IMG/VR virus record: IMGVR_UViG_2576861459_000003 | Location: 1-64,000 of that record | Length of the DNA: 64,000 nucleotides | Source: an uncultured virus (IMG/VR IMGVR_UViG_2576861459_000003) | Taxonomy: Duplodnaviria > Heunggongvirae > Uroviricota > Caudoviricetes | Strand: one strand, 5' to 3' | Part shown: piece after piece, positions 3,624 to 63,475 of the stretch | How positions within the stretch are numbered: the stretch's first letter is position 1 | How the letters are laid out: every line of letters begins with the position of its first letter | Notes under the pieces: generated by a model | What the model saw: only the letters and a program-made list of their open reading frames with translations | Databases searched by the model: none | Told to the model about the DNA's origin: nothing | Translations under genes and position numbers: made by a program

Positions 3624-3709
3624 TTTATCCCCCTTCTTTGTTTAAGTACGTGTTAACTCATGCTCCATGACCAATTGACATTTAAATCACCTCACTTCAA
3701 ATTTAATGT

Positions 3710-3738
3710 GTATATTTTCAAAACATCTCCACACAATA
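3710..3738 (+). promoter_or_regulatory. putative sigma-G promoter of sspC
   Basis: GTATA-17 nt-CACAATA fits the sigma-G consensus upstream of a SASP gene. Confidence 0.55.
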
Positions 3739-3782
3739 CAATTGTACAAACTTGTTTACATACTACTTTAGGAGATGATCAT

Positions 3783-3995
3783 ATGGCTAAACAAAACAGA
3801 TCAAACAACAGCAATGAATTACTTGTGCCTCAAGCTGCTGGTGCTCTTGAACAAATGAAGTATGAAATTGCTTCTGAGTTCGGTGTGAACTTAGGGCCTG
3901 AGACAACAAGTAGAGCAAACGGATCAGTAGGTGGAGAGATCACAAAACGTTTAGTACGTTTAGCTCAACAAAGCATGAATGGCCAATTTCATTAA
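3783..3995 (+). CDS. sspC: alpha/beta-type small acid-soluble spore protein
   Basis: [26 protein letters not shown] signature; GGAG RBS before ATG 3783. Confidence 0.95.
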
Positions 3996-6839: not shown

Positions 6840-6914
6840 AACGCCACTCCTATTTATTATTTTATTTTTATTCTAAAAGTATGTAAAAAAAAGACAAGAT
6901 TTTAACTTGTCTTT

Positions 6915-6964
6915 ATCTTATCATTCAGCCTCTCAAAAGTCTATAACTATTTTATTTTTATTCT
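6915..6964 (-). promoter_or_regulatory. sigma-A promoter with upstream SPBRE-like element
   Basis: Minus strand AGAATAAAAATAAAA..TAGACT-17-TAAGAT. Confidence 0.6.
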
Positions 6965-8313: not shown

Positions 8314-8374
8314 AATTTCCTTCCTTTCAATTCCATCGTTTGGTAAAATATTCTTGCCTACATAATGGAAAGAG

Positions 8375-9010
8375 GTGATCTTTTTGTCTGTTTACAAATA
8401 CAAGCCAGCGGTGGTTAAAGAAGTACTGGAATGTAAAACTGAAAGATTAACAGACTCAATTGAAGCAAGATATTGTCTATCAATCAAGCTTAATAATAAT
8501 TTAGACTCTTCATATGTGTTTATTATGTTAAATCCCAGTATTGCTGACAAAGAAGTATCCGATCTCACTATAACTAAGTTGTGTAATTTTAGCCACTCAT
8601 TAAATGAAGTTGGATCCATTCATATTGTCAATCTCTATCCTTTTTACGAAACAAATTCAGCGGAATTATCCTCAATAGTTCATAAGCTTCAAAAAGAGTA
8701 CAGGAGCCTGTATGAAGCTACCGTTAAGACTAATCATCAAATTATAGCCAATTTAGCTAAAGAATCTAAAAAGGTAATCTTTGCTTGGGGTGATTGTCCA
8801 AAGCAATTCGATAAACGAAGTTTTAATAAACAATGTCAAGATGTTAAACAGCTCCTAAAAGGAATAAATAAAGACGAGGCATTTGTTATCAAAACCCATC
8901 ACAACAGGCTTCTCACAGTTAAGAATTCACCAAGACATCCATGTATGAATCGCCTTAATGGCCTTATGCCGTATCAAGAGCCATATGAACTGTCTCAGAT
9001 GACACAATAA
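8375..9010 (+). CDS. DUF1643-family protein
   Basis: IMLNPSIAD, VNLYP, FAWG, PRHP motifs. Confidence 0.75.
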   Translation: MIFLSVYKYKPAVVKEVLECKTERLTDSIEARYCLSIKLNNNLDSSYVFIMLNPSIADKEVSDLTITKLCNFSHSLNEVGSIHIVNLYPFYETNSAELSSIVHKLQKEYRSLYEATVKTNHQIIANLAKESKKVIFAWGDCPKQFDKRSFNKQCQDVKQLLKGINKDEAFVIKTHHNRLLTVKNSPRHPCMNRLNGLMPYQEPYELSQMTQ

Positions 9011-9408: not shown

Positions 9409-9448
9409 ACATCTCCTTATTTTATTTTTATTCTATAAATAACTATAC

Positions 9449-10463: not shown

Positions 10464-10580
10464 GGCTTCCCCTTCCTAAATTTTAGATAAAAGTCTTCTT
10501 TTATTTAGTCCTTTTTCCTGATTACTGGTATAATATACTTGTCTCAAAATTCTCAATATACGAAAAGGTGGTAATATTTA

Positions 10581-12532: not shown

Positions 12533-12780
12533 TATTGACCCCTTAAATCATTTATTAAGGTGTCTAACTCACCAGGTATAAAACCGATACTTCGTTTTAC
12601 TTCCTCTCCTTGCTCATTAAGCAAGATAGTTACCGGTACACCCATTACTCCATATTGTGCTGCCACTTCCGGATTCTGTGTTACATCAACTGTCTCATAT
12701 TCAACTCCTGCATCATTTAAGTAATTGGACACCATTTTGCAGGGATTGCAATTTGGTTGCTCTAATTTAATTAATCTCAT
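12532..12780 (-). CDS. yosR: thioredoxin/NrdH-like redoxin
   Basis: CNPC and GVP motifs downstream of nrdF. Confidence 0.88.
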
Positions 12781-14571
12781 TGAATACATCCTTTCTCAGT
12801 AAAAATGAAATCTGAATCCTTTAATGGCTCCACCGTTGCTTTTTTGTACCCATTCCCTTTTTGGCTAAAGAAGTCATGTGACTTAGTCTTTGTGCTTAAT
12901 CCATTAATAACGATCGGATTAACATCCTCTTCTTCAAACCAATGATCAAAGCCCAGATTGTTTAATGCTTTATTTGCGTTGTATCTGATGAATTTCTTTA
13001 CATCTGGAGCTAAACCAACCTGATCATAAACATCTTCTGTATACTCCAATTCATTTTCATAAAGCTCTTGTAGCAAGCTTAAAGCCCATTCATACATTTC
13101 TTTTTGCTTCTGAGGCGTTTGTTTCTTATATATCTCTTGAGCTAATAAACCGATGTATACGCCGTGTAGCGCCTCGTCTCTAATACCTTTAGTTCAACCG
13201 AGTTCGCTACTCTCGGCTCGTTGCCCTGTCGCAACCGCCTTACGTTACCGTAAGGAGCAGACTATATCATCATCCCTGTAGGATGCCTCCCGTTTCGATT
13301 TAAGGGGTTCTCACCCACGCCAATAGCTTGCGCCCTACTCGTTTTGCGGAATTTCGCCGCCTATGCGATAGTCGTTGAACGTTCTATGCGATCCCATAAA
13401 GTCTTCCATCTTCTTTTATGTCGAATCAGACTAACGTAACGAGGATGAAGGCTGTATTTTTCACCAGCTTCAACATTATTCATTCCAGCAAGCAAATCAT
13501 AGATTAAATTTGTTGCCTCTGAGTCTGTGAGCTTTGACATTGAATTACTTTCTCCAGGTTGTCCTGACATTAATCCAATTTTCATTGCGTGTAGAGTATT
13601 TTCTTTAGGTGTAACTATCTCTAAATTCCGAACGTGATTGTTTAGTTTATTTCCATCTATGTGGTTTACAAACATTCCTTTTGGTATTTCATGAATAAAA
13701 TATTTTGCGACTAACCTATGTACTAAAAAGTTCTGTGTTCCTTTATTCGGATGCGTGTATCCTATCATTTCATAGCCATGTGGAGTAATAAATGTCTTTC
13801 TTGGTTTCTTTAATTTTTTTGATATGATAACTCCCGTTTCCGTTATCCACCAAGGTGCTTCATCGACTTCTTTCCTTATCATTTTCACCTCCTTTGGGTT
13901 CGCATAGCTTCGCTGCTGATTGTCCTAAAAAGGATTTTCCAGCAATTAGAGAGGTTCACATTTGCCGTTGCCGACAAAAGGGACTATTAAATAATCAGGT
14001 TAATGATCTCTCCACTCTGCATGAGCTTCCCTTGTCCATAAAAGTAAAGTGGGTAATAAAACCCTGAGTAGAAAAGGAAACTCTCCAGAAACACAGATGC
14101 AACCATTGCTTTGAATAAGGAAATATCATCGTTTTTCTGAACCGCTTCATAAATCGAAACAATTGTTTTTGCTTTCCTTTGAAGAAACCTATTGTTTTTC
14201 ACCCATTCGAAGACTTCATTGATCTTCTCGGTTGGAGCCAAAGTTAGAAAGATGTTGCTGTAAGATTTCGCATGGACAGCATTTTCCATCATCGCCATGA
14301 AATTAAGAACCGCTTTTCGCTGATGGCCTTCGACGTGCTCGGCCACAATCGGCATGCCTGTGTTCCCCTGCTCTGTGTCCAATAATGTAAGCCCAGCTAA
14401 AACTTTCATATAAGTATCTTGTTCCTTTGTTCCAAGATACTTCCAAGTGAGAAGATCGCCGTTTAATGCGATCTCTTCCGGAAGCCAAAACTGCTTTACG
14501 TTTTGGTTGTAGAACATTTGGGTGAAATCATCTTCATGCTTTGACCAGTTTGCTGCTGTATATTGCGTCAA
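12777..14571 (-). CDS. nrdF: class Ib ribonucleotide reductase beta subunit, spliced: exons 14571-13994 and 13185-12777 (328 aa)
   Basis: Removing 13186-13993 restores [22 protein letters not shown] and FYSGF motifs present. Confidence 0.93.
13186..13993 (-). ncRNA. group I intron (808 nt) in nrdF carrying an HNH endonuclease
   Basis: Exon ends in U, intron ends in G, conserved GATATAGTCT core element near 13259-13268, frame restored on removal. Confidence 0.92.
13361..13882 (-). CDS. yosQ: intron-encoded HNH homing endonuclease
   Basis: [23 protein letters not shown] motif; AAGGAGGTG RBS; inside intron. Confidence 0.9.
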
Positions 14572-14574
14572 TTA

Positions 14575-14799
14575 TTAGTCCTCCTTCTTAGATATAAACT
14601 CTTGTTCAATTGTGAATTTCCCTTCAGGCAATATAATAGGTCTATCATCAGCAGACCTATAATTAACATCAAATAATACGTTGTCGTAAGTTAGTGCGTG
14701 TTTATTAAGGGTTTTAATACATCCGCCCTTTAGGTGACACCCAATCAGTACTGACTTTTTTCTTTTTCTCAAATACCAAACTGCCAATGAACTTAACAT
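14575..14799 (-). CDS. small hypothetical protein between nrdE and nrdF
   Basis: GAGGAGG RBS, 74 aa, fills the gap. Confidence 0.55.
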   Translation of the reverse strand: MLSSLAVWYLRKRKKSVLIGCHLKGGCIKTLNKHALTYDNVLFDVNYRSADDRPIILPEGKFTIEQEFISKKED

Positions 14800-14817
14800 C
14801 TTTCAGCGCCTCCTCGC

Positions 14818-17450
14818 TTAAACCACGCAACTCAAGCACGAATCCTGCCCTGTATCCTTCGTTCGAGCATAATACAGCGTCTTAATTCCTTTATGATGCG
14901 CATATAAGTCGATCCGGTTTAAATCTCTTGTTGTCATCGTATCCTTTAAGAACAACGTAAAAGAAATTCCTTGGTCGACGTGCTGCTGAATTGTTGCAAT
15001 AAGATCAACTACCTTAAACATATCCATGTCGTATGCTTCCTTATAAAAGAACCAATTCTGAGCCGATAAACCTGGCATTGGATAATATGTCTTACTGTTT
15101 CCGTATGTACGTTCCTCGATTCTCTCCATAATGGGCATTACACCGGCCGTAGATGATTGAACATATGAGATGCTTCCAGTAGGTGCAACAGCTTGCCTGT
15201 ATGAATGATACAAGCCATATTTCATAACATTCTCTTTAAGCTTCATCCAATCTTCAATGTTAGGAATATGTTGATCTCCAAACAGGTTTTTAACCTTTTC
15301 ATATTTAGGGCTATAATCATTTGTCACGTACTTATCAAAATACGCGCCTGATTTGTAGGTTGATCCATCAAACTTGTAGTACGTCTCCCCTGTTTCTCTT
15401 GCAATTTCCATTGAACGCTGCAGGGAGTAAAAGTTAACCATCATAAAGTATGTATTTGCAAAGTCTTTTGCTTCTTCACTTTCATAAGCAATTTTATTTT
15501 GAGCTAGAAAACCGTGCAGGTTCATCTGCCCTAGACCAATTGATCGCATTAGTGTATTTGCTCTCGCAACGGCTGGGGCATTTACAATGTTTGTTTTCCT
15601 TGTGACAGTTGTCAGTGAGTCAATTGCTATTCTGACCGTTGAAGCAATTGATTGGTTACTCATTACATTTACAATGTTCATGGATCCAAGATTACATGAG
15701 ATATCTAATCCAATTTCATCTTCCTGATCGTAATCTGTATAAACTGACACTTGTGATGCTTGGAGTACTTCTGACTTTAATATTCAACGAAAGGCGCAAC
15801 ACTCTCGTCCGTTCTCTTATGAACTGCTTACGATCACTCGTAAGAATAGACTATATCATCGACCTATAAGGCCGCCCGCCGTTTCCATCGCCATATGCTT
15901 GCGATGTACTCTACTCCCTTACGCGTATGCGTGGTTTCGATAGTCGTTCGGCATTTCCGCAAGGTGCGGTTTAGCACGGTATTGTCTATTGAATAGAGTT
16001 TCACCGTTTAGGCGGGTTTGCTACGGCCATTGCTGACCGAAGGTGCTACAGTTAACACAAATTAGAAAACTTCACTTTTGAAATATGTTCATTTGGATGC
16101 ACTTTATTTACATTGTCAGCAAACATAATATAAGGATAGCCAGATTCACTTCTCAGAATGGCCAATTGCTCCAACAGCTTCCGAGCATTCCCCTTTGCTT
16201 TTCTAACCCTTGGATTTTCAACAAGCTCCTCATACATTTTATTGATGTCCATCTCATCAAGATACTGTCCATATTCTTTGTAAACTGAATGAGGATAGAA
16301 CATGTAAAAGTCCTTATCTTCTCTTGCCAATTCAATGAATTTATCAGGAAGTACTACACCAATGGAGAGTGTTTTAACCCGGACATCTTCATCTGCTGAG
16401 ATTTTTTTGGTATCCAGGAAGTCTGTAATATCTGGATGGAACACGCTTAGATAAGCTGCTCCAGACCCTTGTCTTTGCAGACCATTCAGACGTGTTCGCT
16501 AAGCACGTCCCGCCATATGGCTGCTTCATGTTACCATGAAGGTTAGACTATATCTTCACCCACTAAGGGTGCCTCCTGTTTCGACTGCCAATAGCTTGCA
16601 GCCTACGCCTTTCGGCTAGTCGTTGCACGTTCAAGACTTTAGTCTAGCTTCGCTCATGATTGTCCTTGTAGGAGTTCCCATGAATTAAAGAGGTTTTCGA
16701 TCGCCATTTCTGACGAAAGGGGCCAAATCAACCCATTTGATCGGCATATCTAAAAGCATTATCCAATAGCTTCATAACACCTACGACGCCTTTTGTTACA
16801 TTTTCCACATCTTTAATGGCTTCGCCTTTGGCTCTTAATTTATTTAAGTTTAATGCTACGCCACCGCCTAACTTAGACAGTTGCATTGAAATATCAATAG
16901 CACGTGAAATATCATTCAAACTGTCACCTACTTCAAGTAGGAAGCAACTGACCATTTCACCCCTTCGCTTACGACCAGCATTAATGAAAGCCGGCGTAGC
17001 TGGTTGATACTCTTGTTTCATCATAGTACGCACATTCTTAACCGCTTTCTCATAGTCTCCACCTGCGAAAAATAAAGCTACAATTGAGACACGATCCTCG
17101 TATCTCTCCAGGATCTTTGTTTTGTCGTTTGTCTTCAATGCATAGTCATTGTAGAACTTAAAGGCACTCATGAAAGATGGGAATCTGAATTTGTAACTGT
17201 AAGCAAGTTTAAAAATCGTTTTAATCTGGTCAAATGTGTACTCGCTTAAGAATTCTTCTTCGTAATAATCATTTTTAATCAGATAATCCAGTTTCTCTCT
17301 TAAATCATGGAAAAAGACTGTATTTTGATTAATATAATCTACAAAGTAACTGTGTACTGCCTCCTTATCCTTCTCAAATTGAAACTTCCCGTCTTTCTGA
17401 ATCATGATCTCATTATTGAGCTTGATCCACTTTGGTATGGTGTTTGTCAA
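14818..17450 (-). CDS. nrdE: class Ib ribonucleotide reductase alpha subunit, spliced: exons 17450-16731, 16477-16055, 15774-14818 (699 aa)
   Basis: Splicing restores YADQMG|QRQGSG and SNLC|SEV; SCF, SCNLGS, APTGSIS and C-terminal CLSC motifs; TTG start after GGGAGG. Confidence 0.93.
15775..16054 (-). ncRNA. group I intron 2 of nrdE (280 nt, no ORF)
   Basis: Exon ends TGT, intron ends G, GATATAGTCT element near 15849, frame restored. Confidence 0.88.
16478..16730 (-). ncRNA. group I intron 1 of nrdE (253 nt, no ORF)
   Basis: Exon ends GGT, intron ends G, AAGATATAGTCT element near 16545, frame restored. Confidence 0.9.
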
Positions 17451-17808
17451 TAAGTTGTACCTCCCGATTAATCTTCTGCAAATCTTGTTTTGTTCCACTA
17501 AGTTCAAACTTTAATAACAATGGTACGCGGAACATTGCTGAAAGCTTCTCTCCAGCTAAACCATAGTTATCACCCCAAACCTTGTTACCACTCACAACAA
17601 CACCTTTTATTTTATTTTTATTCATAATAATAAAATTCAAAGTCCTTTCAGGCACTTCCCCAAAGCCTATCGTATATGTAATATGTATAAATTCTTCTTC
17701 AATGATTAAGTCATCTGTAATTTCAATGACATCGAAGTTTAACTCCCTTTGTAAAGCTTGAGCAAACCTTTTCACATTGCCTGTCTTGCTTTCATATGTA
17801 ATAATCAA
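17413..17808 (-). CDS. nrdI: NrdI flavodoxin-like protein
   Basis: YESKTGNVKRF, TYTIGFGEVP, SGNKVWG, FELSGT motifs. Confidence 0.93.
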   Translation of the reverse strand: MIITYESKTGNVKRFAQALQRELNFDVIEITDDLIIEEEFIHITYTIGFGEVPERTLNFIIMNKNKIKGVVVSGNKVWGDNYGLAGEKLSAMFRVPLLLKFELSGTKQDLQKINREVQLIDKHHTKVDQAQ

Positions 17809-19073: not shown

Positions 19074-19112
19074 CCTATTCTCCTTTTCTGATTTCTCTTT
19101 AAAATCATCCTT

Positions 19113-19469
19113 TTAAAGTAATGAATAAAATCCCAGTTCGCTGACCGCCCCGCCAGCCATTGTTTTGAGCACTTTGAATTCTAATTTAACTGCCAAGTCT
19201 CCTGCCATGTTGAAATGAATTTTATTAATGTCCGCCTTTAACACCTTTGTTTCGCCCTCATAACTTGTCAATTTCATTTTAAGTGGACTTTTTATCCCCT
19301 CATTCAAATCAAACACCTTATATGCTGTTGAATTCTTACCAGTGTTTATAGTAATCCTGTCCTCATCCTCAACAGCTTCAATGTTCTGGTAGTGAAGAAC
19401 AATTTTCGTTTCCTTCGGTAAATAATTATTAAATTTTTCTTTAAAAACAGAGATTTCTTTTAAAATCAT
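19113..19469 (-). CDS. hypothetical protein
   Basis: ORF track with AAGGAG RBS. Confidence 0.7.
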   Translation of the reverse strand: MILKEISVFKEKFNNYLPKETKIVLHYQNIEAVEDEDRITINTGKNSTAYKVFDLNEGIKSPLKMKLTSYEGETKVLKADINKIHFNMAGDLAVKLEFKVLKTMAGGAVSELGFYSLL

Positions 19470-19787: not shown

Positions 19788-19824
19788 CTCCTCTTTTGTT
19801 TAAAATAAAACTTTTAATTAAATC

Positions 19825-21467: not shown

Positions 21468-21502
21468 GTTTTTCTCCTTTCTTTATAAAAATTGAATTTT
21501 AT

Positions 21503-22427: not shown

Positions 22428-22483
22428 TTAACATCTCTCCATTTCATTTGATTCTCTATAAAAGGAATATTTTATTTTTACTC

Positions 22484-22669
22484 TTAAAGTAATTGCAAGT
22501 AATCCAATGTCTTTTCTAATTTCATGTCTTTACATTTCTCAATGCATTCTTTCTTGATTGCTTCTCCACATTCTTTATGTACCGGGAATTCCCTGTATTC
22601 TTTGTTGTCGGATATTCTTATGTAATATACGATGTCTCCAATGTGATCCTTGCATTTAACACACTCCAA
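22484..22669 (-). CDS. small Cys-rich protein (YorY-like)
   Basis: CVKC..HKEC; GAGGTG RBS. Confidence 0.6.
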   Translation of the reverse strand: MECVKCKDHIGDIVYYIRISDNKEYREFPVHKECGEAIKKECIEKCKDMKLEKTLDYLQLL

Positions 22670-22695: not shown

Positions 22696-22745
22696 AATAT
22701 ACTCGCATTCTCTCAAACAATCAACAACTATTTTATTTTTATTCT
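22696..22745 (-). promoter_or_regulatory. sigma-A promoter with upstream SPBRE-like element
   Basis: AGAATAAAAATAAAA..TTGATT-17-TATATT. Confidence 0.65.
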
Positions 22746-22942
22746 TAAAAAGTTTCTTTTAAATTTCTTAGCTTTACTGTTGCAGCCAAAATATCCGAGT
22801 CACACCTTTTCCATATGTGGTTATCCTCTGGCCTTAAATTGTTCTCTAAATATACCCAAAGCTTATCTAATATCTCCTCAATCTGATCAACGTCATTATT
22901 AATGATATCCCTGGCAATATCCCTAATTACACGAAACCTCCT

Positions 22943-32928: not shown

Positions 32929-34443
32929 TTATCCTGCTTTAACATTCAATTTTTCAACTGTAATTAATTCGTTATCGAGATTTGTTGTGAAACAATCCTT
33001 GATCCGCATATTTCCCATATTTATATGGGAGAAGACTTTTACTTTGTCGTACTCATTTCCCCTGTTCTTAAATACGTGTGTAACAAAATTTGGCTCTGAG
33101 TAAAAACCTGCTTTTAAAATCGGATCAATAGCATCCTTCTCTTTTTTACTTAAGGGTAGAATAATCATTGCAGCATCAGTCTTATCTGCAATAGCTTTAC
33201 TTCCTCTAAGGTAAGATGCATCTATAACTTGTCCTTTTTGCCATGCCTCTTTCCATTCACCATTTAATTGAGTAGCACTCATCATATAGACATCGTATTT
33301 GTTGCATAAGCCCTTTAACTTATCAGACATAAGCAAAAGGATTTGATCCTCTCTTAGGTTGACGCCGCTTTTTTTACTCATCTCCGAAAAAATTGTCACC
33401 GATGAGTGAATATAATCAAAGTAAATGTACTCAACATTATTTTTAATTACATTCTTTTCAATCGTTCTCTCGATCTCCTGGATATTGAAATCTGGAAGAT
33501 GCTCGAACCAAATATTGGACTCTTGAAGAACTTTAGCAGCTTTGCGCACAAGCTGTTTTTCTTGCTCATTAATAGTATTTCTGAGTATTTTTTTCTCTTC
33601 TACACCACTGATATAGGCAAGAGCCAAGCTTTGCAATTCCTCTGCCATCATTTCCGTTGAGATGACCGCGGAACTTTCATTCCAAGGATTTTTCACCCAT
33701 TCTTTCTTTTTAAGGTCGTACAACTCAGTTGCACTTAATCGACAAGCATCAGCAACCATATTTCTTGTTTTACCTCCGCCTGTAATACTTGAGCGAATAT
33801 AAAACTTTTTCTTACGAGACCCACGGAAAATTGACGTAAGCATTTCGCTATTTAGTGGTACTCCAATATCTGGCGACTCCTCAAAAGAATCTAATAACTC
33901 ATCAATGCCTTCTCCACCTTGAATTCCCACGCTTTCGGATGAGGTTCGAAACTTCTCTTTTACATCTACAATCTTCATTTCATAAGCTGCTAGAATTTCA
34001 TCAATCGATTTCTTATCAAACTGTTCCTGCATTTTTTCTTGTTCTTTTGGATCAATTATAGTTTCATCATAAATCTCCTTGATATCGAAACCTAAGCCGC
34101 TCATTTCTCTGAGCAAACTAAATTTTTTTAGTCTTTTATAGTGGTAATCAAAGTTTTCGACTACAGCCAACTCTTGAATTCTCTCGATGTATTCAAGGCC
34201 ATTGTTATCATGAAAAATCTTATATTGAATGTCGTAATCTTTTAGATATCCATCTATCTCAACCTCATTCAATACTTCCGTCCCTTGCTGGAATAAGTTA
34301 CTCATAGCAAAAAACAGTATTGAGTGAAATCTTGAAGGGAAATCATCCGAAGTAATCCTATACTTGTTGCTTTCAGACAAGATTGTGGGATCCTTGAGTA
34401 TGCTTCCTAAAACCTGAATAATTGCTTTTTTGTCTTGTAGCAA
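32929..34443 (-). CDS. yorI: DnaB-like replicative helicase
   Basis: TGGGKT Walker A, STEM, FDYI, ATQLN, KNR motifs. Confidence 0.9.
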   Translation of the reverse strand: MLQDKKAIIQVLGSILKDPTILSESNKYRITSDDFPSRFHSILFFAMSNLFQQGTEVLNEVEIDGYLKDYDIQYKIFHDNNGLEYIERIQELAVVENFDYHYKRLKKFSLLREMSGLGFDIKEIYDETIIDPKEQEKMQEQFDKKSIDEILAAYEMKIVDVKEKFRTSSESVGIQGGEGIDELLDSFEESPDIGVPLNSEMLTSIFRGSRKKKFYIRSSITGGGKTRNMVADACRLSATELYDLKKKEWVKNPWNESSAVISTEMMAEELQSLALAYISGVEEKKILRNTINEQEKQLVRKAAKVLQESNIWFEHLPDFNIQEIERTIEKNVIKNNVEYIYFDYIHSSVTIFSEMSKKSGVNLREDQILLLMSDKLKGLCNKYDVYMMSATQLNGEWKEAWQKGQVIDASYLRGSKAIADKTDAAMIILPLSKKEKDAIDPILKAGFYSEPNFVTHVFKNRGNEYDKVKVFSHINMGNMRIKDCFTTNLDNELITVEKLNVKAG

Positions 34444-36967: not shown

Positions 36968-37348
36968 TTAATTATTAATTTTATTTTTATTCTTAAAATG
37001 CCTATAATGAGACTTGCTACTAAACTTACAATCCTTGATGCCAAGTAGCTTATTTAATTCTATGTATCTCTTTTTTGGAAAGTCCCAAGGTTCAGGATCA
37101 CCTTTTACATTTTCAATCCTTATTACTGTTCCATGCCGGATTGTGATCTTTAAGTTTCCATATGAGTATGTTTTAGAAAAAAGACCTCTTTTAATTCCTC
37201 TTGGTTTAAATTCCTTTACCAACATCACATTCCTGGTTAACTTTCTTCTTGCTTGGTCTTCGTCAATGTCGTAATTCCTTTTGACATCATTTTTGTAGGT
37301 ATGTAAGGCTTCGGCAGATACTTTCAGTATCTTTAATTCCTTTTTCAT
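36968..37348 (-). CDS. yorE: hypothetical protein
   Basis: First gene of replication operon, AAGGAGG RBS; synteny. Confidence 0.65.
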
Positions 37349-37381: not shown

Positions 37382-37431
37382 ATCTTACATCACCAAAACG
37401 GATTGGTCAATAACTATTTTATTTTTATTCT
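37382..37431 (-). promoter_or_regulatory. sigma-A promoter of the replication operon with SPBRE-like element
   Basis: AGAATAAAAATAAAA..TTGACC-17-TAAGAT. Confidence 0.72.
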
Positions 37432-39304: not shown

Positions 39305-39416
39305 ACCTAATTCCTCCTCTGAGTGTTTTATTATATTACACTCAGACATTACCCCAAAAATATCCATATAAACCACTTTCTATTTAATTTGTTTTCTTTT
39401 AAAACTACAGTTTTAT

Positions 39417-41980: not shown

Positions 41981-42076
41981 TTAATAACCACTCCTTTTTA
42001 TTTTTGTTTTATTCTTAAAACTCAAATCACATAGGTAACTCACATTGTTATCACCCCCTTAAATAAAAAATTACTT

Positions 42077-42475
42077 TTATTTAGACTCAATACTGATTCC
42101 TGAATCCTTTAGCAATCCCATTTGTTCCCCTGATATATTTGCTTTCACTACGTCCCACCCGACTAATGTTTGACCGTAATACAAATCAGTTAACTCTACA
42201 TCACCATCATTCAAATCACCTTTTAATCGAATTATTCTTTCTCTATACGTTTCGTGCCCTACAATTTCATAGTCGTCATTATAAATTTCAAACGTTTTGT
42301 TGTCGGTTTCATAGTCTTCGAAAGATGTACATAAATATCTGCCGTCAGAAAGGGACGGGTTAGTTTTCAGCCATTCATATACTTCTTCATTAGATCTAGC
42401 AAGCAAGTATGTAAAGATACCCCGTTCACTTCCTCTAGGAGCAAAGTGTTTTAACATAATTTCATATAAATTCAT
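42077..42475 (-). CDS. hypothetical protein (YoqY-like)
   Basis: Start MNLYEI after AAGGAG. Confidence 0.65.
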   Translation of the reverse strand: MNLYEIMLKHFAPRGSERGIFTYLLARSNEEVYEWLKTNPSLSDGRYLCTSFEDYETDNKTFEIYNDDYEIVGHETYRERIIRLKGDLNDGDVELTDLYYGQTLVGWDVVKANISGEQMGLLKDSGISIESK

Positions 42476-44867: not shown

Positions 44868-45029
44868 TTTGGTTGCCTCCTTTCATTAAAATAAATATTT
44901 TATTTTGATCCAAATTTGATCACCAATCAAGTTCTAAATCGTCCATAATATTTGTCATTGCATCGTCCTCTTCTTCTGTTAACCCGTAATCAGCAAGCCT
45001 GTTTAAATAGTCTTCTCGCTCGTGTTTGG

Positions 45030-46999: not shown

Positions 47000-47122
47000 G
47001 TATCAAGGCCTCCAATTCTGTTTAAAATCACGATTTTAATTTAACTTTAATGTGTATCATCTTGAGAAAATCCCCTTTAATTGGTAAACTCATACCTAAC
47101 TTACGTAAGAGTGGGTGATTCC

Positions 47123-47909: not shown

Positions 47910-48134
47910 TTATGATTTATATTTCAACGCTTTTAGTTCATCTTCATACAAAGGAAGAATAGCCTTTTCAGCTTCTGTTTTAGACACACCATGCTGCTCC
48001 ATATAAGTTACAATATCCATTCCAATGTTATTCCCTAGTTCAGTTTCCCAAACTATGTGATTAGCCATAGCAAGATTGCCGTCCACTAAGTCTGTCCCCT
48101 CTCTCTTTAAAACAGTCTTTTTATTAAATCCCAA
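47910..48134 (-). CDS. hypothetical protein
   Basis: ORF track. Confidence 0.5.
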   Translation of the reverse strand: MGFNKKTVLKREGTDLVDGNLAMANHIVWETELGNNIGMDIVTYMEQHGVSKTEAEKAILPLYEDELKALKYKS

Positions 48135-49952: not shown

Positions 49953-50003
49953 CCTTTTTATTTTTATTTAAAATGCATCTTTTAACTGGTTGAACTTATA
50001 CGG

Positions 50004-51419: not shown

Positions 51420-51453
51420 TATTCCTCCCTCGTTTCCAACAACTCAATAAAAC

Positions 51454-51678
51454 TTACATTTTATTTTTATTCTTAAAATAACCGTGCTGATTTACAACAT
51501 CTCGAAGTATGTATTGTATTTCCTCTAAATTGTCTTTAACGAAATCTAGATCTCCAATTGCCATTCTGATTTCATTATTCTCTATGCTGCGTAAAGACCT
51601 TTCACATGATACTAAGAGCTTTGTATATTTCCTTAAAACCATAGTTCTTATTTGATCGTTAATTGGTTCATTAATCAA
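51454..51678 (-). CDS. hypothetical protein
   Basis: ORF track. Confidence 0.55.
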   Translation of the reverse strand: MINEPINDQIRTMVLRKYTKLLVSCERSLRSIENNEIRMAIGDLDFVKDNLEEIQYILRDVVNQHGYFKNKNKM

Positions 51679-53013: not shown

Positions 53014-53997
53014 TTAAGAATTAGTCTCAATTACTTCAGACTTGATACAATATTTTTCTAAGTTCTCCATATTCACTACTTTCCTCAGTGATTGAGAATT
53101 AAACTCCGCGTCTTCATTCAGGAACCCATATTGTCGAGTTATTTTTTTATAATCAGGTACTTTTAATTCGCCCTTCTCTTTGTATATCTCATACGCCATG
53201 TTGAGCTTTCCTGAGTTGATAAGATTCTTGGGTGAAAAGAAGGGTTCTTCTAAAAATTTTTGAAACTGACTAAAAGAACGGTGAACTAAAAATTTATCAG
53301 CTTTCATACTCTGATTAGAACTCTTATATTTTAGCCTAAAAATGTTTTCGCTTTTAACTAATGTAGCAAATTTGTTTTTAAGTCCACTCTCTGGCGAACC
53401 ATTGCTAAGATGATATGTTGTTTGATCATTAGCGCGCTTAAGCAACTCATAACATTTATCGCTTACAGTAATTATTCTTACACCATGTTTATCATCTACC
53501 AGCTTTACCTTGTTATCATCAAGTAAATCGTCACCTGTTAAATTCAGTAACTCTGAATGCTGATAACCATCTATACCTTCATAAATAGCCTGTATCATCG
53601 CTTTATCCTGATCATTAACCATAAAATCAACATATTCTTCTACTTCTTTATTGGTGAATAGTGTTTTTTTGTTTTTATCTATAAACTGCTTTAAGTCACC
53701 ATCCTGTATCTGATACACTTTGTTGATGTTACTGTTTGCCAAGCCATTTTCCATTGCCCATGTTGTGTATTGTCCAATTACAGCTCTTGCTCCTCTTAGT
53801 GAATCTATAGATTTACTATCTAAATCTAAAAATAACGTACGCAGCTCTTCCAAAGAAAAATTAAATATGTCTTTTTGAAGTATTTTTTCTGTAGCTGAGA
53901 AATCCCTTAGCCTTAGCCAATAAAGGTTTCTTGTTACTTCACTTTCGTATTTCTCTAAAAACTTTTCCTTTAATTCAGCATTATACATTTCACTCAT
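53014..53997 (-). CDS. yopR: YopR/MrpR (SroF) master repressor, degenerate tyrosine-recombinase fold
   Basis: [11 protein letters not shown] start, [18 protein letters not shown]; last gene of sro operon. Confidence 0.85.
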
Positions 53998-54017: not shown

Positions 54018-55367
54018 TTAAACAACAGCAATTTCATCATAAAATATTCTCTTTAGTTTCTTCTTCATAGCAGTCTTCAGTTGATTTTCATTATTTCGTC
54101 TTCCTAATTCTTCAAACACTCTTCCGCTCTTACTAAAGTCAATTGTATTAAGGATACTTTCAAGCTTGTTTAGTTCTACATTGTTTTCCTTCATCTTCTT
54201 GGCCAAATAAACATAACCGTAAAACATTACGTTATGATTAATGTATGATTGCTTTCTAATGGACGATAAATCATCTTCAAGAAATTCATCTGGGAAGGCA
54301 TAAAAAAGGTTATCAAAAAAGTCGACCAGGTATTTCGCAATTTTCAACGCATCTTTTCGAGATTTCAACTCAAATGCATCATCTATAGCTTCGGATAAAG
54401 TATAATATGTCACAAGGAAATTGCTATCGATACCAATTTCACTTTGTGGGCTTATTTTATTTTTAAGTTCACTTTTAAATTTCAGCTGCTCGACAACTGT
54501 TGAAGAATACCGTTTTTGCCCTAATTCTTCAATTCTGGATTTTTCAACTGGGTTTATTGTGTTCATTTGAGCAAAGTGAACCTTAGCCTTTTCTTCATCG
54601 TAATTGAGCACATTTAAAATGAATGGTTGATCTAATTCAGGGACTTCAGCAATGGCCTTAACAATACCTGAAATTCGATGGTACCCATCTAGAGCATCTA
54701 ATAAGGTTCCTCGCGTTACAGTGAGGGTTTGGTCGCTTGGATCATATTCAACTTCTTCATCCCCATCTGATGTTCCAAGACGAGCGTTAAAAGTTAACAT
54801 AGATACAATTAAATCGCCTTTGATAAACAATTCTTTGATCTCATCAACTGATTTAGGGTTTGTTTTAGGTACAGGGATAAGGCTGCCCTTAATGTACTTT
54901 CCTTCACGCTGAGTGTTGTAATTGTACTGCAGAATGGAGCTATTATATAACTCACTAAGTTCTTTGGCAGTAATGGAAGTGACATAGTTATCCTCTTTAA
55001 TTTTAATCACATTTTTAAACTTGTATGGAAGCTTAACTACTTCTTCACCGGCGAATACTCTCCCACCTTCAAGCTCTTTTGCCAATCTGGTTGGAAAATA
55101 ATTTGACGGATCTAAAGCGTGCGCCCCAAGAATTGAATACATCTCTTTTGAAACAATGTAGACTTCTTTTTCGTTTAAACGCTGTACGTTGTTATCATTA
55201 TTATTTAAAATTTCTTGGATATAACCAGGGAGTGCCTTGTATTTTTCCGCCATCGTAGCTTTTAATTCCTTCACCATATTGGAATCATCTTTAATATCAA
55301 TAAGCCTTTCCTCTATTTCACTTTTTAACTTATAAAGTTTATCCGTTGTTAACAAAACATCAGACAC
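54018..55367 (-). CDS. yopQ: YopQ (SroE), DndB/DGQHR-like domain protein
   Basis: LDGYHR and FAQMN motifs; synteny. Confidence 0.82.
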
Positions 55368-55443: not shown

Positions 55444-56502
55444 TCACTTATTCAAAAACATTTTAAGTTTACTCTGTATATACATGTCTGATTTTAAAAA
55501 GAATTCTTTATATTGCTCTAATGTAACATCATCTAAAAAGGTCATATCTTCTTTTTGATCAACCAAAACCCCTGGATCTTGAGAATAATCCCTTTCATTG
55601 ACTAAATAATGATCATTCAAAACATTGATATTGCTGTGACCAGAGAACGCTGCCACTTTTTTAATATCACCATTAACGCTGTAAGAAAAGTTTGTTGCAG
55701 TATTGCGTAAACTATGCGGAGTTATCTTTCTTTCTTTGGGAATACCCATAACTCTACATACGCGATTCCACATATCCTGTATTGAATCAACTGTTAACTT
55801 ATGAAATAACAGTTCATGTTCCCCATACTCTTGCTTTAACAGCAACAACTCTTCATAAAAAGCTGTGGAAATTCCAACTGGCCTAGCCTTTTTTTGCTTA
55901 GTTTTTTTAAAGTTGACGAGATAACATTGATGCTTTTCTGAATAAGTAATATCATCCCACCCAACTCTAAGCACCTCTGATTTACGCCCACCAGTACGTG
56001 CACTAAACAAAATAAACATCTTTTTCATTAATCTGTTCTGACGCTCAGTAGCATAAGCTGCCTCAGCAAATTCATCAGCTTCCGATATTCCTTCAAAAGA
56101 CCCTGCTGGATTCTTTTCTGTTGGAAGAGGTCTAAAATTAAATACAGATGAATCACACTCATGTTCAGATTCAAGATACTTAATCATGCTTTTCAGTGCG
56201 GCAATCTTATTGTTAATTGTTGAATTGGAGTTACTTTTATTTTTAGCCAAATGGGTTCGATAATCATACAGGTCGCTTTTCTTGATCGCCAGGTCACTCT
56301 CAGTTAAATATTCAATATCCTTGGCAGCATAGTGGTTGAAAAACTCTCTTATATGCCTTTCATACGTGGCTCTAGTATTAGACTTTTCAATTTCTCCAGT
56401 TTCTCGATCCCTGTTTCTTAAATCTAATTCATCAAACCACCTATTTATGTTATTGTATATTGAATAATCCCTTAGTGTTGACGCTTTCTTTTGAGCTCCC
56501 AT
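55444..56502 (-). CDS. yopP: YopP (SroD) tyrosine recombinase with complete catalytic set
   Basis: TGGRKSE (R), KKTK (K), HSLR, SGH, DHY. Confidence 0.88.
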   Translation of the reverse strand: MGAQKKASTLRDYSIYNNINRWFDELDLRNRDRETGEIEKSNTRATYERHIREFFNHYAAKDIEYLTESDLAIKKSDLYDYRTHLAKNKSNSNSTINNKIAALKSMIKYLESEHECDSSVFNFRPLPTEKNPAGSFEGISEADEFAEAAYATERQNRLMKKMFILFSARTGGRKSEVLRVGWDDITYSEKHQCYLVNFKKTKQKKARPVGISTAFYEELLLLKQEYGEHELLFHKLTVDSIQDMWNRVCRVMGIPKERKITPHSLRNTATNFSYSVNGDIKKVAAFSGHSNINVLNDHYLVNERDYSQDPGVLVDQKEDMTFLDDVTLEQYKEFFLKSDMYIQSKLKMFLNK

Positions 56503-56511
56503 AATGACACC

Positions 56512-56676
56512 TCATATCATTTTTTTCATTAAGTATTGATCAAATTCTTGCCATGCAACAACCCATTCATTTTCACCTTGAATATTGCTCAGTAGCATTA
56601 TATTGGCGTTACAGATTTCCATTTGCTTTAACATGTCGTATTCTTTAAGAGCGTTAATTAAGTTGTCTGCATTCAT
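56512..56676 (-). CDS. small sro-operon protein (54 aa, MNADNLINAL...)
   Basis: Manually read ORF between SroB-like gene and yopP. Confidence 0.6.
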   Translation of the reverse strand: MNADNLINALKEYDMLKQMEICNANIMLLSNIQGENEWVVAWQEFDQYLMKKMI

Positions 56677-56714
56677 TTTATCACACCTAATTTATTTTTA
56701 TTCTATAATAAAAT

Positions 56715-56945
56715 TTAGTTTAGGACATTTACCCTTTCGTCCTTACAGACGTTTATAATTGGCATTCCCGTCAATTCCTCATAAAGCTCCTCTTCGAACC
56801 CAACCCATTCATCACTCGTTGCTTCTCTTCGTAGGAACTCATTATAAGCTACTGCTATCTCAGGCTGCTCTAAAAACTTTAAAACGATCATATGCTTTTT
56901 CCAAACTTTAGCCTTGTTTTCTTCTGTGTAATATTTATTATTCAT
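56715..56945 (-). CDS. phi3T_93 / SroB-like lysogeny factor
   Basis: MNNKYYTEENKAKVWKKHMIVLKFLEQP sequence as recalled for phi3T_93; second gene after aimX. Confidence 0.72.
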   Translation of the reverse strand: MNNKYYTEENKAKVWKKHMIVLKFLEQPEIAVAYNEFLRREATSDEWVGFEEELYEELTGMPIINVCKDERVNVLN

Positions 56946-56959
56946 TTTATTTTTACTCC

Positions 56960-57172
56960 TTAAATACATTTTATAGAATTTTTTTGTTCTTTAATGAGGT
57001 TGTATTCTTTATGGTTTTTTCTCATTGTAGTTACATTATTAGGTGTAAACACATCTGGATCCTCTAGATGGAGATTGACTCGTGTGAAGTTCTTTAGTTG
57101 TTTTATGTATTGATATTGTCTTAATGATGTAATCTTCAACTCTTCTTTTTGAGTGGCACTGGTTGTTTCCAT
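56960..57172 (-). CDS. first sro-operon gene (phi3T_92 position)
   Basis: ATG after GGGGGA, 70 aa. Confidence 0.6.
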   Translation of the reverse strand: METTSATQKEELKITSLRQYQYIKQLKNFTRVNLHLEDPDVFTPNNVTTMRKNHKEYNLIKEQKNSIKCI

Positions 57173-57208
57173 TGTTTCATCCCCCAACAACGTTCATCTT
57201 GTAACTTC

Positions 57209-57321: not shown

Positions 57322-57477
57322 TTAGGATACCTTTGCTTTATATTTTGATCTAATCATTTCTGCTTCATTTTCAAGATGATTATCTTCCTGGGAAATTTCT
57401 AAATTAATATCTCCCATTTCCATGTATCCCTTAGCCATTTCCTCATAAGAAAGTGCTTTTCCGAAATGCTTTTTCAT
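57322..57477 (-). CDS. aimX: AimX (51 aa), MazE-mimic lysis-promoting protein
   Basis: MKKHFGKALSYEEMAKGYMEMGDINLEISQEDNHLENEAEMIRSKYKAKVS directly downstream of aimP. Confidence 0.88.
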   Translation of the reverse strand: MKKHFGKALSYEEMAKGYMEMGDINLEISQEDNHLENEAEMIRSKYKAKVS

Positions 57478-57602: not shown

Positions 57603-57728
57603 TTATGCTCCTCTGCTAGCTGAAGCCACTGTGATATCTCCGTTAGCAGTTTGGACTGATTGTTGTCCACTTACAAATCCTACAGTTAAAGCTAGTAAAA
57701 TGACAATCGCGCAATTAAATTTCTTCAT
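57603..57728 (-). CDS. aimP: arbitrium peptide precursor (41 aa; predicted mature SASRGA)
   Basis: MKKFNCAIVILLALTVGFVSGQQSVQTANGDITVASASRGA; AAGGAGGTG RBS; directly after aimR. Confidence 0.93.
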   Translation of the reverse strand: MKKFNCAIVILLALTVGFVSGQQSVQTANGDITVASASRGA

Positions 57729-57756
57729 TCTTTCACCTCCTTTCAAGTGAAGAAAA

Positions 57757-58911
57757 CTATAGCGCAATTAAATTTAATATTTCATCTGAGTATCCATGCT
57801 TTTTCAATTCAATCAAAGGTAGATTTAGACAGAGCCTATCGCCTGACTTTTTGAATTTCTTTATACTCTCGTGAAAATGGGACATATCATTATACAGCAA
57901 GCCCTTAACGTGATAAAGAAACCCTAAATCATCATCCAGAACATCATGTTCTTCAATTTTTTTAATAACATCTTCTGCTTTCTTAGTTTCTTTGATATTA
58001 GTCAAATAAAAAGCAGCTTCAATCATATCCGGTATTTCTTGAGACTCGAAATCTACCCATTTGTTTTCTCTCGCCCAGACATTATCTAAAAAGCAAAGTG
58101 CGAGTCGTAATTTATAATGATGATGGCTATTGTCTTTTGCAAAGTTCAAGCCTTTTTCATAGCATAGTTTTGCTTTAGCATAATCTTCAAAAATGTATGT
58201 ATTCCCAAGTGTTAAATAACTAAATACAATCAATCTGTTATTATTGCATTCTTCAATTACAGCGCTACAATGTTTTCGGGTTTCTTCTAGTTCATAATCA
58301 TTTAAGCTTATATTGGCCTTTAACAGTTCAATTCGACCACTGTACGAATCTTTTATAAATCCATTAGACAGTTCGTCAATCTCCAGAAACTGAGCTGTAC
58401 TTTTCATTAAGCCAAATTCTCCAATTTTCAAGTATTCGTACATAATCATAATATTCGAAAATGAATACATTTCAGGAGATTTAATTCTATATTTCCCAGT
58501 TTCCCGGATCGCTTCATTTATAGAAATTTTATTATTATTCAGTTTTCTATGTAGGGAATAAACCTGTCCCCATTCACGACTTATTGAATTAGATGATTCG
58601 CAAAGATTGCTTACGATCTTATCAGTCAATGCATTCCATTGGTTTAAATCTGCATACTCGACAGACTGTCTTGCGCTTTTTTTATTGGGATCCAATGATA
58701 AGAAGTAGTCACTTAGAAGCTGCTCTTCATTATCCGGAAACAAGCTCTTAACAATATTAATTAAACCGCCTAAGTTGTCCATTTCTTTCTCTGGGGTGTT
58801 GATGAATTTGTAAAAACCATTAACCTTTTCGTACCCTGCTATTTTTGAGAGTTTCGCTGCGAGCTGGTTGTCTTTTTCACATTCATTCTTAATCATCTGC
58901 TTAAGATTCAT
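57757..58911 (-). CDS. aimR: arbitrium receptor AimR (HTH plus TPR, RRNPP family)
   Basis: 384 aa, SREW..VY, TPR-like helices, followed by aimP. Confidence 0.93.
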   Translation of the reverse strand: MNLKQMIKNECEKDNQLAAKLSKIAGYEKVNGFYKFINTPEKEMDNLGGLINIVKSLFPDNEEQLLSDYFLSLDPNKKSARQSVEYADLNQWNALTDKIVSNLCESSNSISREWGQVYSLHRKLNNNKISINEAIRETGKYRIKSPEMYSFSNIMIMYEYLKIGEFGLMKSTAQFLEIDELSNGFIKDSYSGRIELLKANISLNDYELEETRKHCSAVIEECNNNRLIVFSYLTLGNTYIFEDYAKAKLCYEKGLNFAKDNSHHHYKLRLALCFLDNVWARENKWVDFESQEIPDMIEAAFYLTNIKETKKAEDVIKKIEEHDVLDDDLGFLYHVKGLLYNDMSHFHESIKKFKKSGDRLCLNLPLIELKKHGYSDEILNLIAL

Positions 58912-58952: not shown

Positions 58953-59003
58953 AATATACATTAGAGTTGTCAGAATTACAAGTATTTATTTTATTTTTAT
59001 TCT
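58953..59003 (-). promoter_or_regulatory. sigma-A promoter of aimR with SPBRE-like element
   Basis: AGAATAAAAATAAAA..TTGTAA-17-TATATT. Confidence 0.7.
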
Positions 59004-59055
59004 AATTATTTTTTAAGGATTAATTATCTGTTTAAAATTCGTATTTTATGAAGAC

Positions 59056-59905: not shown

Positions 59906-59955
59906 ATATCTCCACCCACTTATTTTAATAAAAGGATTCTTTTATCTAAATTCAT

Positions 59956-62574: not shown

Positions 62575-62621
62575 ATTGCCCTCCTACCAGGTCTTTGTTT
62601 ATTTTATTTAAAAGAATGATT

Positions 62622-63011
62622 TTATTCAGTAACACCATTTTCATATTCAAGGTTGTATGTTGCTATTTCGTGTACTCCTATATCCCCTGCAAAGTTTCCA
62701 TCCTCATGTTCCTGTTGTAAATAAACCTCTTTATCTTTTTCAAAGATTTCTCTTGCTTCATCTAATTCAGTTACAGCTTGCGATCCCATTCGATCTGTTA
62801 CAGTAAATACTAAGCACCGTTTTAACTCGGTACCATCTTTAAGGACTACGTCTGCCATGACGTACCCATTTGGCTTTAGTTCGCCAATTTCATTACGTCT
62901 TTTATCGATTGCCTCTTGAAGAACCACAGAAACAGTATTGTTATCAGACTCACTTAAAGCCATTTCTAATTCTTCAATTTCCTCAAGTAGTACTTGAATT
63001 TCCTCTCTCAT
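62622..63011 (-). CDS. hypothetical protein
   Basis: ORF track, AAGGAG RBS. Confidence 0.7.
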   Translation of the reverse strand: MREEIQVLLEEIEELEMALSESDNNTVSVVLQEAIDKRRNEIGELKPNGYVMADVVLKDGTELKRCLVFTVTDRMGSQAVTELDEAREIFEKDKEVYLQQEHEDGNFAGDIGVHEIATYNLEYENGVTE

Positions 63012-63414: not shown

Positions 63415-63475
63415 TTCTATATTCCCCTTTCATGTGTGGTTTTCACCTTCTAATTTTGTAAAAGTACGATTTTAT

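Follow-up and report, generated by a model that had tools for sequence, protein, structure and literature searches.

YopP of an arbitrium provirus, a putative Xer-like enzyme of the sro lysogeny module, and the TAAAA-N6-TTTTA dyads of its phage clade

YopP, also called SroD, is a predicted Xer-type tyrosine recombinase of an uncultured SPbeta-like phage. Its gene lies in the window analysed here, a stretch of 64,000 nucleotides that forms the first 64 kb of the 123,854-bp provirus record IMGVR_UViG_2576861459_000003, which is estimated to be 96% complete. The same window is rich in a short dyad-symmetric element, TAAAA-N6-TTTTA. The reading that we favour, with modest confidence, is that YopP is an Xer-like non-integrase enzyme of the sro module and that the dyads are a separate element for which YopP is neither necessary nor sufficient. 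YopP belongs to the sroD-sroE-sroF (YopP-YopQ-YopR) module of the arbitrium lysogeny operon. It would still be a working enzyme and not a DNA binder that has lost catalysis, most likely binding an inverted-repeat core site as a dimer, and cleaving and rejoining phage DNA through Tyr299; it is most likely not the prophage integrase. The dyads would be distinct double-stranded sites for a symmetric dimer, with the half-site T-R-A-A-A and weaker T-n-n-A flanks, placed at gene junctions shortly before the ribosome-binding site; they are found across a broad clade of large siphophages of Firmicutes. Among several candidates for reading them, YopP would be one.

The gene is the following (ORF, open reading frame):

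55444-56502, minus strand: YopP/SroD-like Xer-type tyrosine recombinase of 352 amino acids, assigned from the ORF call, Pfam, the family alignment and AlphaFold2/Foldseek

An initial annotation of the window had credited YopP with a full set of tyrosine-recombinase residues (TGGRKSE, KKTK, HSLR, SGH, DHY), and all six positions were recovered in the motifs ARTGGRKSE (R173), FKKTKQKK (K202), TPHSLRN (H263 and R266), FSGHSN (H289) and NDHYL (Y299). Pfam Phage_integrase (PF00589) matched the protein at 52.8 bits for a cut-off of 27.1 (53.5 bits in the genome-wide search), an N-terminal SAM-like core-binding domain was also matched by Pfam, and PHROGs groups YopP with integrases. The top NCBIfam profiles were XerA, XerC, XerD and XerS, and YopP stays below the equivalog cut-off of each of them (72.6 vs 220, 51.7 vs 335, 42.4 vs 330 and 36.6 vs 267, respectively); a sequence search of the PDB gave weak Xer matches only (E >= 0.05). 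The AlphaFold2 model, for which the family alignment served as input, had a predicted local distance difference test score (pLDDT) of 93.2 and a predicted template modelling score (pTM) of 0.86. Its top PDB matches in Foldseek were DNA-bound Tn1549 Int, XerH-difH, XerA, Cre and lambda Int, with a probability of 1.00 for XerH, Cre, lambda Int and Tn1549 Int. By its PF00589 score, its catalytic residues and the predicted two-domain fold (core-binding and catalytic), YopP is a member of the tyrosine recombinase superfamily. A YopP with 98% identity to this one was also found on a 133-kb contig of an assembly that bears the title of a Streptomyces species; the contig most likely comes from a Bacillus prophage, through contamination or mislabelling.

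The active site is conserved well beyond this provirus. A phmmer search with YopP against 1.84 billion representative proteins returned 1209 relatives at E <= 0.001, of which 260 had E <= 1e-10. The family alignment holds 108 rows, that is the query and 107 of the 150 best of the 1209 matches; the 36 at the end of the list and seven others, short or fragmentary, were dropped. R173 and H263 are kept in all 108 rows, K202 and Y299 in 107 and H289 in 104, and position 266 is arginine in 66 rows and lysine in 42. The neighbouring paralogue was reported by the initial annotation to lack these motifs, and this is what was observed:

53014-53997, minus strand: YopR/SroF/MrpR-like integrase-fold repressor without catalytic residues (Pfam MrpR_N_CB and MrpR_C_cat)

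In a MAFFT alignment of tyrosine-recombinase-like proteins, separate from that of the family, YopR carries Q, K, K, I, Q and F at the six catalytic columns, and most catalytic residues are lost in the YopR-like proteins of the provirus, SPbeta, E3 and PBC2. The alignments thus give good evidence that the YopP active site is under selection across the family. Because this active site is kept family-wide and the fold matches DNA-bound recombinases, the YopP family appears to be selected as an enzyme, and from the residues, fold and conservation observed directly we infer that YopP is catalytically active and binds as a dimer.

The genes around YopP form the set of an SPbeta-like arbitrium phage, made up of YopP, YopR and the following neighbours:

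54018-55367, minus strand: YopQ/SroE-like DndB-family protein of 449 amino acids (Pfam DndB 2.8e-16; phrog_5732)
56512-56676, 56715-56969, 56960-57190 and 57322-57477, minus strand: four small upstream ORFs of the sro operon (ORF calls)
57603-57767, minus strand: ORF with the AimP precursor, ending in ...SASRGA, its function being assigned from its position and the phi3T annotation
57757-58911, minus strand: AimR arbitrium receptor (Pfam AimR 2.3e-85)

Three of the small ORFs had no Pfam match and the fourth matches AimX/YosL-type phrogs. YopP is 77% identical in amino acids to phi3T_95 (SroD), the fourth sro gene, and 31% to SPbeta YopP; the three share the same operon place, with aimR-aimP ahead of them and the DndB-like and MrpR-like genes behind, and nothing structural sets them apart. 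This context and the orthology to phi3T and SPbeta uphold the placement of yopP in the sro lysogeny operon, and the protein is a phi3T-type SroD/YopP of a known family. The YopP-DndB-YopR triplet is also kept in Geobacillus E3, in a Staphylococcus SPbeta-like phage and in Psychrobacillus Perkons, and DNA identity to known phages is only about 76%, over parts of the YopP region. A passage of PMC10769878 gives the renaming of yopMNOPQR as sroABCDEF, and parts of PMC8612738 and PMC10516654 describe YopR (MrpR/SroF) as an integrase-fold protein that acts as the master repressor. In the literature searched, no description of what SroD itself does was found.

In other phages YopP-like genes stand in a different neighbourhood, which is conserved but unlike the sro operon. 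In PBC2, Tsamsa, FADO, Sundance and KKP_3916 the gene lies 2.4-4 kb from an HU-like gene. In the annotated genomes of PBC2, Tsamsa and Sundance its neighbours further include replication genes, a sigma-factor gene and one for a transcriptional regulator; their order and sizes are matched by genes of FADO that carry no annotation.

The dyad is a genuine element. Exact TAAAA-N6-TTTTA sites number 18 in the window for 0.79 expected, none of 100 shuffles reached 18, and the other spacings from N0 to N20 gave 0-5 sites each, so that the N6 motif of the initial annotation was borne out. The 18 sites, all of the exact pattern and without an assigned strand, are as follows:

10488-10503: intergenic, 24 nt upstream of the next start
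19100-19115
19801-19816
21486-21501
22459-22474: SroF-box-like core overlapping at 22469-22484
22746-22761: exact SroF-box core abutting at 22730-22745
33101-33116: inside the DnaB-like helicase gene; site kept in phi3T and SPbeta
39400-39415
42064-42079
44887-44902
47023-47038: a phi3T BLAST homology block begins 1 bp before it
48108-48123
49969-49984
51448-51463: exact SroF-box core overlapping at 51458-51473
59033-59048: upstream of aimR, with an exact SroF-box core 30 bp away at 58988-59003
59929-59944
62609-62624
63459-63474

The whole provirus has 25 exact dyads, phi3T 30 and SPbeta 34, for 1-2 of the backwards control pattern. Per genome, 25-36 sites were counted at N6 vs 0-8 at other spacings in the provirus, phi3T, SPbeta, E3, PBC2, Perkons and FADO. 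A crude ORF call, which makes about 91% of the DNA coding, puts 14 of the 18 window dyads between genes; of the remaining four, two fall in spurious-looking plus-strand ORFs, one at the edge of a minus-strand ORF and one in the helicase gene listed above. Read in gene orientation, the dyads come after the previous stop codon and 13-45 nt upstream of the next start, and those of PBC2 and E3 stand 2-12 nt upstream of the Shine-Dalgarno sequence.

Variation among the sites reveals a true core of T-R-A-A-A-N6-T-T-T-Y-A. When single-base variants were scanned in six phages, phi3T being omitted as a near-duplicate of SPbeta, only one mirror pair was enriched over the other spacings, A2>G (28 vs 9) and T15>C (21 vs 6). 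In Perkons, which has 52 sites in total with 17 exact, the double variant was seen 10 times and independent half-sites predict about 10. No covariation within the sites or in their flanks was detected beyond the consensus, sequence logos display weak symmetric T-n-n-A flanks on either side, and the consensus of the FADO sites is TGGATAAAA...TTTTATCCA. The mirror-pair variants, the independently varying half-sites and the flanks that do not covary argue for a double-stranded DNA site for a symmetric dimer and against an RNA hairpin, and the pattern is one of DNA-level dyad-symmetric sites at gene junctions. The hairpin was rejected on the further ground that, with the sites read along the genes, G.U-type and A.C-type variants show about the same enrichment. 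No description of the dyad was found in the literature searched, and the word stem 'palindrom' does not occur in the Tsamsa genome paper.

A second set of sites in the window belongs to the repressor. The core of the SroF operator, AGAATAAAAATAAAAT, occurs in 24 copies with up to two mismatches (nine exact) where 1.1 are expected, and all 24 lie on the minus strand, which is the gene orientation; four of the 18 dyads are adjoined or overlapped by such a core. Besides those given with the dyads, they include:

56689-56704, minus strand: SroF/MrpR-operator-like core with one mismatch, inside the sro operon (from the published phi3T operator sequence)
6859-6874, 6949-6964, 9419-9434, 36978-36993 and 37416-37431, minus strand: further SroF-type cores (match to AGAATAAAAATAAAAT)

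Chromatin affinity purification sequencing (ChAP-seq) of MrpR in SPbeta gave ten peaks on the 15-bp SPBRE, according to a part of PMC10516654, and by the count of cores the present phage probably has more SroF/MrpR boxes than that. SroF (YopR) shares a paralogous fold with YopP and is encoded two genes downstream of it. Unlike YopP it has no catalytic residues, and section 5 of bioRxiv 10.1101/2025.11.27.690993 reports that phi3T SroF binds a 24-26-bp non-palindromic box as a monomer. The SroF boxes of the window are non-palindromic sites that recur in one orientation. In mycobacteriophage L5, a temperate phage, the stoperators are short conserved sites present by the dozen, across the genome, in very small gaps between genes; they are asymmetric, oriented sites for a helix-turn-helix (HTH) repressor, and this description fits the SroF boxes better than the symmetric dyads.

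The initial annotation had proposed YopP, perhaps with YopQ, as the enzyme acting on the N6 sites, and this was addressed in a survey of 27 records: the provirus, 10 from YopP tblastn matches, 13 from YorJ-type primase matches, and SPO1, SPP1 and phi105. These records are related, were chosen non-randomly and are phylogenetically non-independent. Dyad status was defined as enrichment at N6 over other spacings or over the backwards pattern, SPO1, SPP1, phi105 and Tsamsa being scored with the exact pattern only. Dyads were clearly enriched in 13 records (the provirus, phi3T, SPbeta, E3, the Staphylococcus SPbeta-like phage, PBC2, Tsamsa, Perkons, KKP_3916 as TGAAA variants, FADO, Mammaliicoccus phi36, Leuconostoc phiLM33_01 and c-st) and moderately in two (phiCD211 and vB_BcoS-136). 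No enrichment was seen in 12: SPO1, SPP1 and phi105, each with 0 exact dyads, and AM1, Sundance, SEP9, vipetofem, EF1, CB473P3, Ldl1, VRE9_1 and TR-TP2. Four of these have another over-represented palindrome in place of the dyad: AATAC-N2-GTATT in Sundance (8 vs 0.3), ATTAT-N3-ATAAT in AM1 (14 vs 2.3), CTCCA-TGGAG in vipetofem (9 vs 0.1) and TATAA-N4-TTATA in EF1 (18 vs 2.2). Gene families were distributed as follows:

YopP family (profile E <= 1e-70): 12 of 15 dyad-rich and 2 of 12 dyad-poor records, Fisher p=0.002
MrpR_C_cat (YopR): 11 of 15 and 1 of 12, Fisher p=0.001
HU-like: 13 of 15 and 5 of 12, Fisher p=0.04
DndB (YopQ): 8 of 15 and 0 of 12, Fisher p=0.003

On these counts the dead paralogue YopR follows the dyads as closely as YopP does, and all the families tabulated are markers of one phage clade. 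The most telling genome is that of phiLM33_01 (81.6 kb), which has the densest dyads, with 28 exact and 31 degenerate sites vs 1-6 at other spacings and the same junction context. Profile searches detected no YopP, YopR, DndB or HU-like gene in it, and seven YopP-like queries found nothing better than E 0.13 outside its single recombinase gene, which belongs to a second family with a member in the provirus:

8017-9006 of phiLM33_01: YomM-like recombinase, sole recombinase gene of that phage
101,719-102,777 of the provirus record, late region, outside the window: YomM-like tyrosine recombinase with an intact R-K-H-R-H-Y set

Because phiLM33_01 is dyad-dense without YopP, YopP is not a necessary reader of the dyads. 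The proposed co-occurrence of catalytic YopP and the motif held as a statistical association and failed in this phage, whose abundant sites without YopP are the outcome that the initial annotation had named as a refutation, at least for YopP as a necessary reader. The dyad-enriched c-st and phiCD211 likewise match only the YomM-like family among recombinases of the YopP and YomM types. Conversely, dyads are present in 12 of the 14 strong YopP carriers, the exceptions being Sundance and AM1, whose strong YopP homologues come without dyad enrichment. That YopP is specifically the enzyme of the N6 sites is not supported, and YopQ, its suggested partner, is missing from 7 of the 15 dyad-rich phages. 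The initial annotation had also allowed for an enzyme encoded outside the window, and the YomM-like gene of the record would be a candidate of that kind.

Several observations weigh against the reading that we favour. Lysine replaces arginine at position 266 in 42 of the 108 family members, SPbeta YopP included, and may weaken activity. SroD is reportedly an auxiliary repressor that contributes to lysogeny (Brady et al. 2023, Cell Host Microbe), a role that need not involve catalysis. No integrase was found in the record, which leaves an integrase role of YopP some formal room. Presence of the YopP family does correlate with dyads (p=0.002), with the reservation on relatedness and sampling given above. 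Finally, the dyad resembles the sites of single-recombinase Xer systems, and YopP could read it in its carriers while a YomM-like enzyme does so in phiLM33_01, c-st and phiCD211.

For the dyads, it is possible, if doubtful, that the reader is no recombinase at all but some small phage DNA-binding protein that evolves fast, for instance a Cro/CI-type HTH dimer, or else the HU-like protein of the phage, the sites serving as operators or roadblocks at junctions. Two 5-bp half-sites separated by N6 lie on one helix face, the classic geometry of an HTH dimer, which counts for an HTH reader. The provirus encodes three HTH_26/HTH_3 proteins and one HU-like protein, HU-like genes occur in 13 of the 15 dyad-rich records, and tblastn left 106 of the 137 phiLM33_01 ORFs without a match in the other phages, which leaves room for an unrecognised reader. 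The host chromosome is also not enriched in dyads, with 72 vs a control of 40 in the 4.5 Mb of a Bacillus genome with a related prophage; 11 of the 50 host-genome dyads listed, out of the 72, are within 19 kb of the prophage contig. On the other hand, HU-like genes are missing from phiLM33_01 and phi36 and present in 5 of the 12 dyad-poor records, a 10-bp specificity unchanged from Leuconostoc to Clostridium hosts is hard to square with a fast-evolving protein, and no shared candidate gene emerged. A tblastn comparison of the provirus ORFs in 9 dyad-rich and 5 dyad-poor phages, insensitive for small proteins, found no gene unique to the dyad-rich phages, and neither did tblastn of the phiLM33_01 ORFs.

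Other readers were rejected. A host regulator does not agree with the chromosomal counts nor with the lack of exact sites in SPO1, SPP1 and phi105. A sigma-A promoter is disfavoured since no consistent -35 element was seen by eye and the dyad is often just 2-12 nt from the Shine-Dalgarno sequence. YopQ (DndB-like), YopR or the HU-like protein as universal reader are each missing from some dyad-rich phages, and for YopR/MrpR the ChAP-seq data in the part of PMC10516654 cited above show ten SPBRE peaks and not about 34. A promoter of the YonO RNA polymerase was discarded too, since YonO starts at a single site upstream of yonK, as given in a part of PMC5467207, and no YonO homologue was detected in E3, the Staphylococcus SPbeta-like phage or PBC2.

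We consider it rather unlikely that a YopP dimer binds the dyads and nicks or recombines them, a YomM-like paralogue doing the same in phages without YopP. The idea draws on the Xer-like architecture of the dyad, with symmetric arms, a variable 6-bp centre and inner AAAA/TTTT as in difH and difSL, and on XerH bound to difH being among the close structural matches of YopP. In passages of PMC5357621, the difH arms read ...TGAAAA / TTTT... around a 6-bp centre and those of difSL ...CCGAAAA / TTTTC...; these arms (...GAAAA / TTTTC... around the centre) resemble the phage dyad. YopP also has the two-domain fold and the R-K-H-R-H-Y hexad of the single-recombinase Xer systems (XerH/difH, XerS/difSL, XerA/dif). 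Unlike the Xer proteins, however, it falls far below the equivalog cut-offs and no single 28-31-bp dif-like site adjoins YopP-like genes; and unlike dif, the dyads number 25-36 per genome, with variable centres, at gene junctions.

Each of the 15 dyad-rich records does have a catalytic recombinase of the YopP family or of the YomM-like type, and the association of YopP with the dyads points the same way. This rule was nevertheless framed post hoc: E3, PBC2 and Tsamsa are dyad-rich without a YomM-like gene, the dyad-rich phiLM33_01, c-st and phiCD211 have no YopP, and three dyad-poor phages also satisfy it, namely Sundance and AM1 with YopP and vipetofem with an intact YomM-like gene. The dead paralogue YopR associates equally well, and the dyad core is identical across YopP homologues that are just 23-32% identical.

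Homology breakpoints give a lead only. In phi3T compared with SPbeta, 12 of the 32 intergenic gaps with a breakpoint carry a dyad vs 16 of 112 other gaps (p=0.009), and a 3.2-kb block of phi3T (KY030782.1, 76354-79566), 100% identical to SPbeta, begins 1 bp before a dyad and ends inside the next. The reverse comparison gave 9 of 29 vs 18 of 120 (p=0.06), and no enrichment was seen for the provirus against phi3T or SPbeta (p=0.8 and 1.0); the signal may come from BLAST, which extends into any conserved dyad.

It is unlikely that YopP, like its paralogue SroF/MrpR, does no more than bind DNA as an auxiliary repressor in the sro module and leaves its catalytic residues unused. Its gene lies in the lysogeny operon, and a part of bioRxiv 10.1101/2021.11.22.469490 gives, from one of three data sets, transcription of yopP in the dormant SPbeta prophage. 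Integrase-fold proteins can moreover be repressors, as is the case of MrpR/SroF in the portions of PMC10516654 and bioRxiv 10.1101/2025.11.27.690993 concerned. But the repurposed YopR-like paralogues of the provirus, SPbeta, E3 and PBC2 lose the active site, whereas the YopP family keeps it in 104-108 of 108 rows, and YopP homologues stand beside replication genes outside any sro operon in PBC2, Tsamsa, FADO, Sundance and AM1.

It is quite unlikely, on our estimate, that the dyads are sites for recombinases of the YopP or YomM type that serve either as integron-like cassette borders, for site-specific exchange of genes between co-resident SPbeta-like phages, or as genome-wide nicking-closing (topoisomerase-like) sites. 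Were this true, it would explain the kept catalysis, the variable 6-bp centres and the phi3T/SPbeta homology blocks that end at dyads. In integrons, the tyrosine recombinase IntI acts with attC sites, imperfect palindromes that border promoterless gene cassettes. Unlike in integrons, no cassette excision was seen here and the dyad core is fixed at 16 bp, attC being long and variable; the integron-integrase profile matched YopP weakly, at 27 bits.

Least of all does YopP, or the YomM-like enzyme, seem to be the integrase of its own provirus, a very improbable reading that would follow from the lack of a serine recombinase. A profile search of the 123,854-bp record found no Resolvase or Recombinase domain, so that a serine integrase is not in the record, and its only two PF00589 genes are those of YopP and the YomM-like protein. 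SPbeta-like phages are described in a part of bioRxiv 10.1101/2021.11.22.469490 as using varied integrases, the tyrosine type included. The initial annotation had assumed a separate large serine integrase, SprA; this is right for SPbeta, in which SprA is the proven integrase according to parts of PMC8612738 and PMC10516654, and found no counterpart in the present record, whose integrase gene may be located outside the predicted limits of the provirus. The provirus is itself a prediction, and its ends may be cut. The YopP gene is 55 kb inside the 124-kb provirus with no adjacent repeat, so neither a place at a prophage end nor flanking attL/attR sites were found. The remark that YopP has no evident att substrate was likewise confirmed: a scan of 11 phages, reaching 350 bp from their YopP-like genes, turned up no inverted repeat (5-9 bp spacer) that is conserved. 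Because of this internal position and of its orthology to phi3T and SPbeta proteins that coexist with the proven serine integrase, an integrase role of YopP is unlikely, and it is a non-integrase role that we infer. The YomM-like family is also found in SPbeta (yomM), FADO, phiCD211, c-st, vipetofem and phiLM33_01. To our knowledge no function has been published for it.

Other genes of the provirus were noted in passing. The ribonucleotide-reductase genes are split at 12777-17507 of the window (minus strand), the small chain into two pieces and the large chain into three, with an HNH endonuclease ORF at 13361-13888 between the pieces, an arrangement that suggests introns or inteins as in SPbeta. 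An alpha/beta-type small acid-soluble spore protein (SASP) is encoded at 3660-3995 of the window (plus strand). Further on in the record are a gene for a tubulin/FtsZ-family GTPase (75460-76572, minus strand), one for a two-barrel RNA polymerase of the YonO type, which shares only 28% identity with YonO of SPbeta (79137-81908, plus strand) and, two genes after the polymerase, the HU-like gene (82784-83116, plus strand).

SPbeta and phi3T are model phages of arbitrium signalling, and two of the three proteins of the repression module have a mechanism, SroD/YopP being the one without. That the whole YopP family keeps its active site while the paralogue has lost it argues for a DNA breaking-rejoining step hidden in this lysogeny system. 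In parallel, phages of Bacillus, Geobacillus, Psychrobacillus, Staphylococcus, Mammaliicoccus, Leuconostoc and Clostridium carry the strictly conserved dyad in 25-50 copies, and once its reader is identified, a layer of regulation or recombination common to a large clade of phages would come to light.

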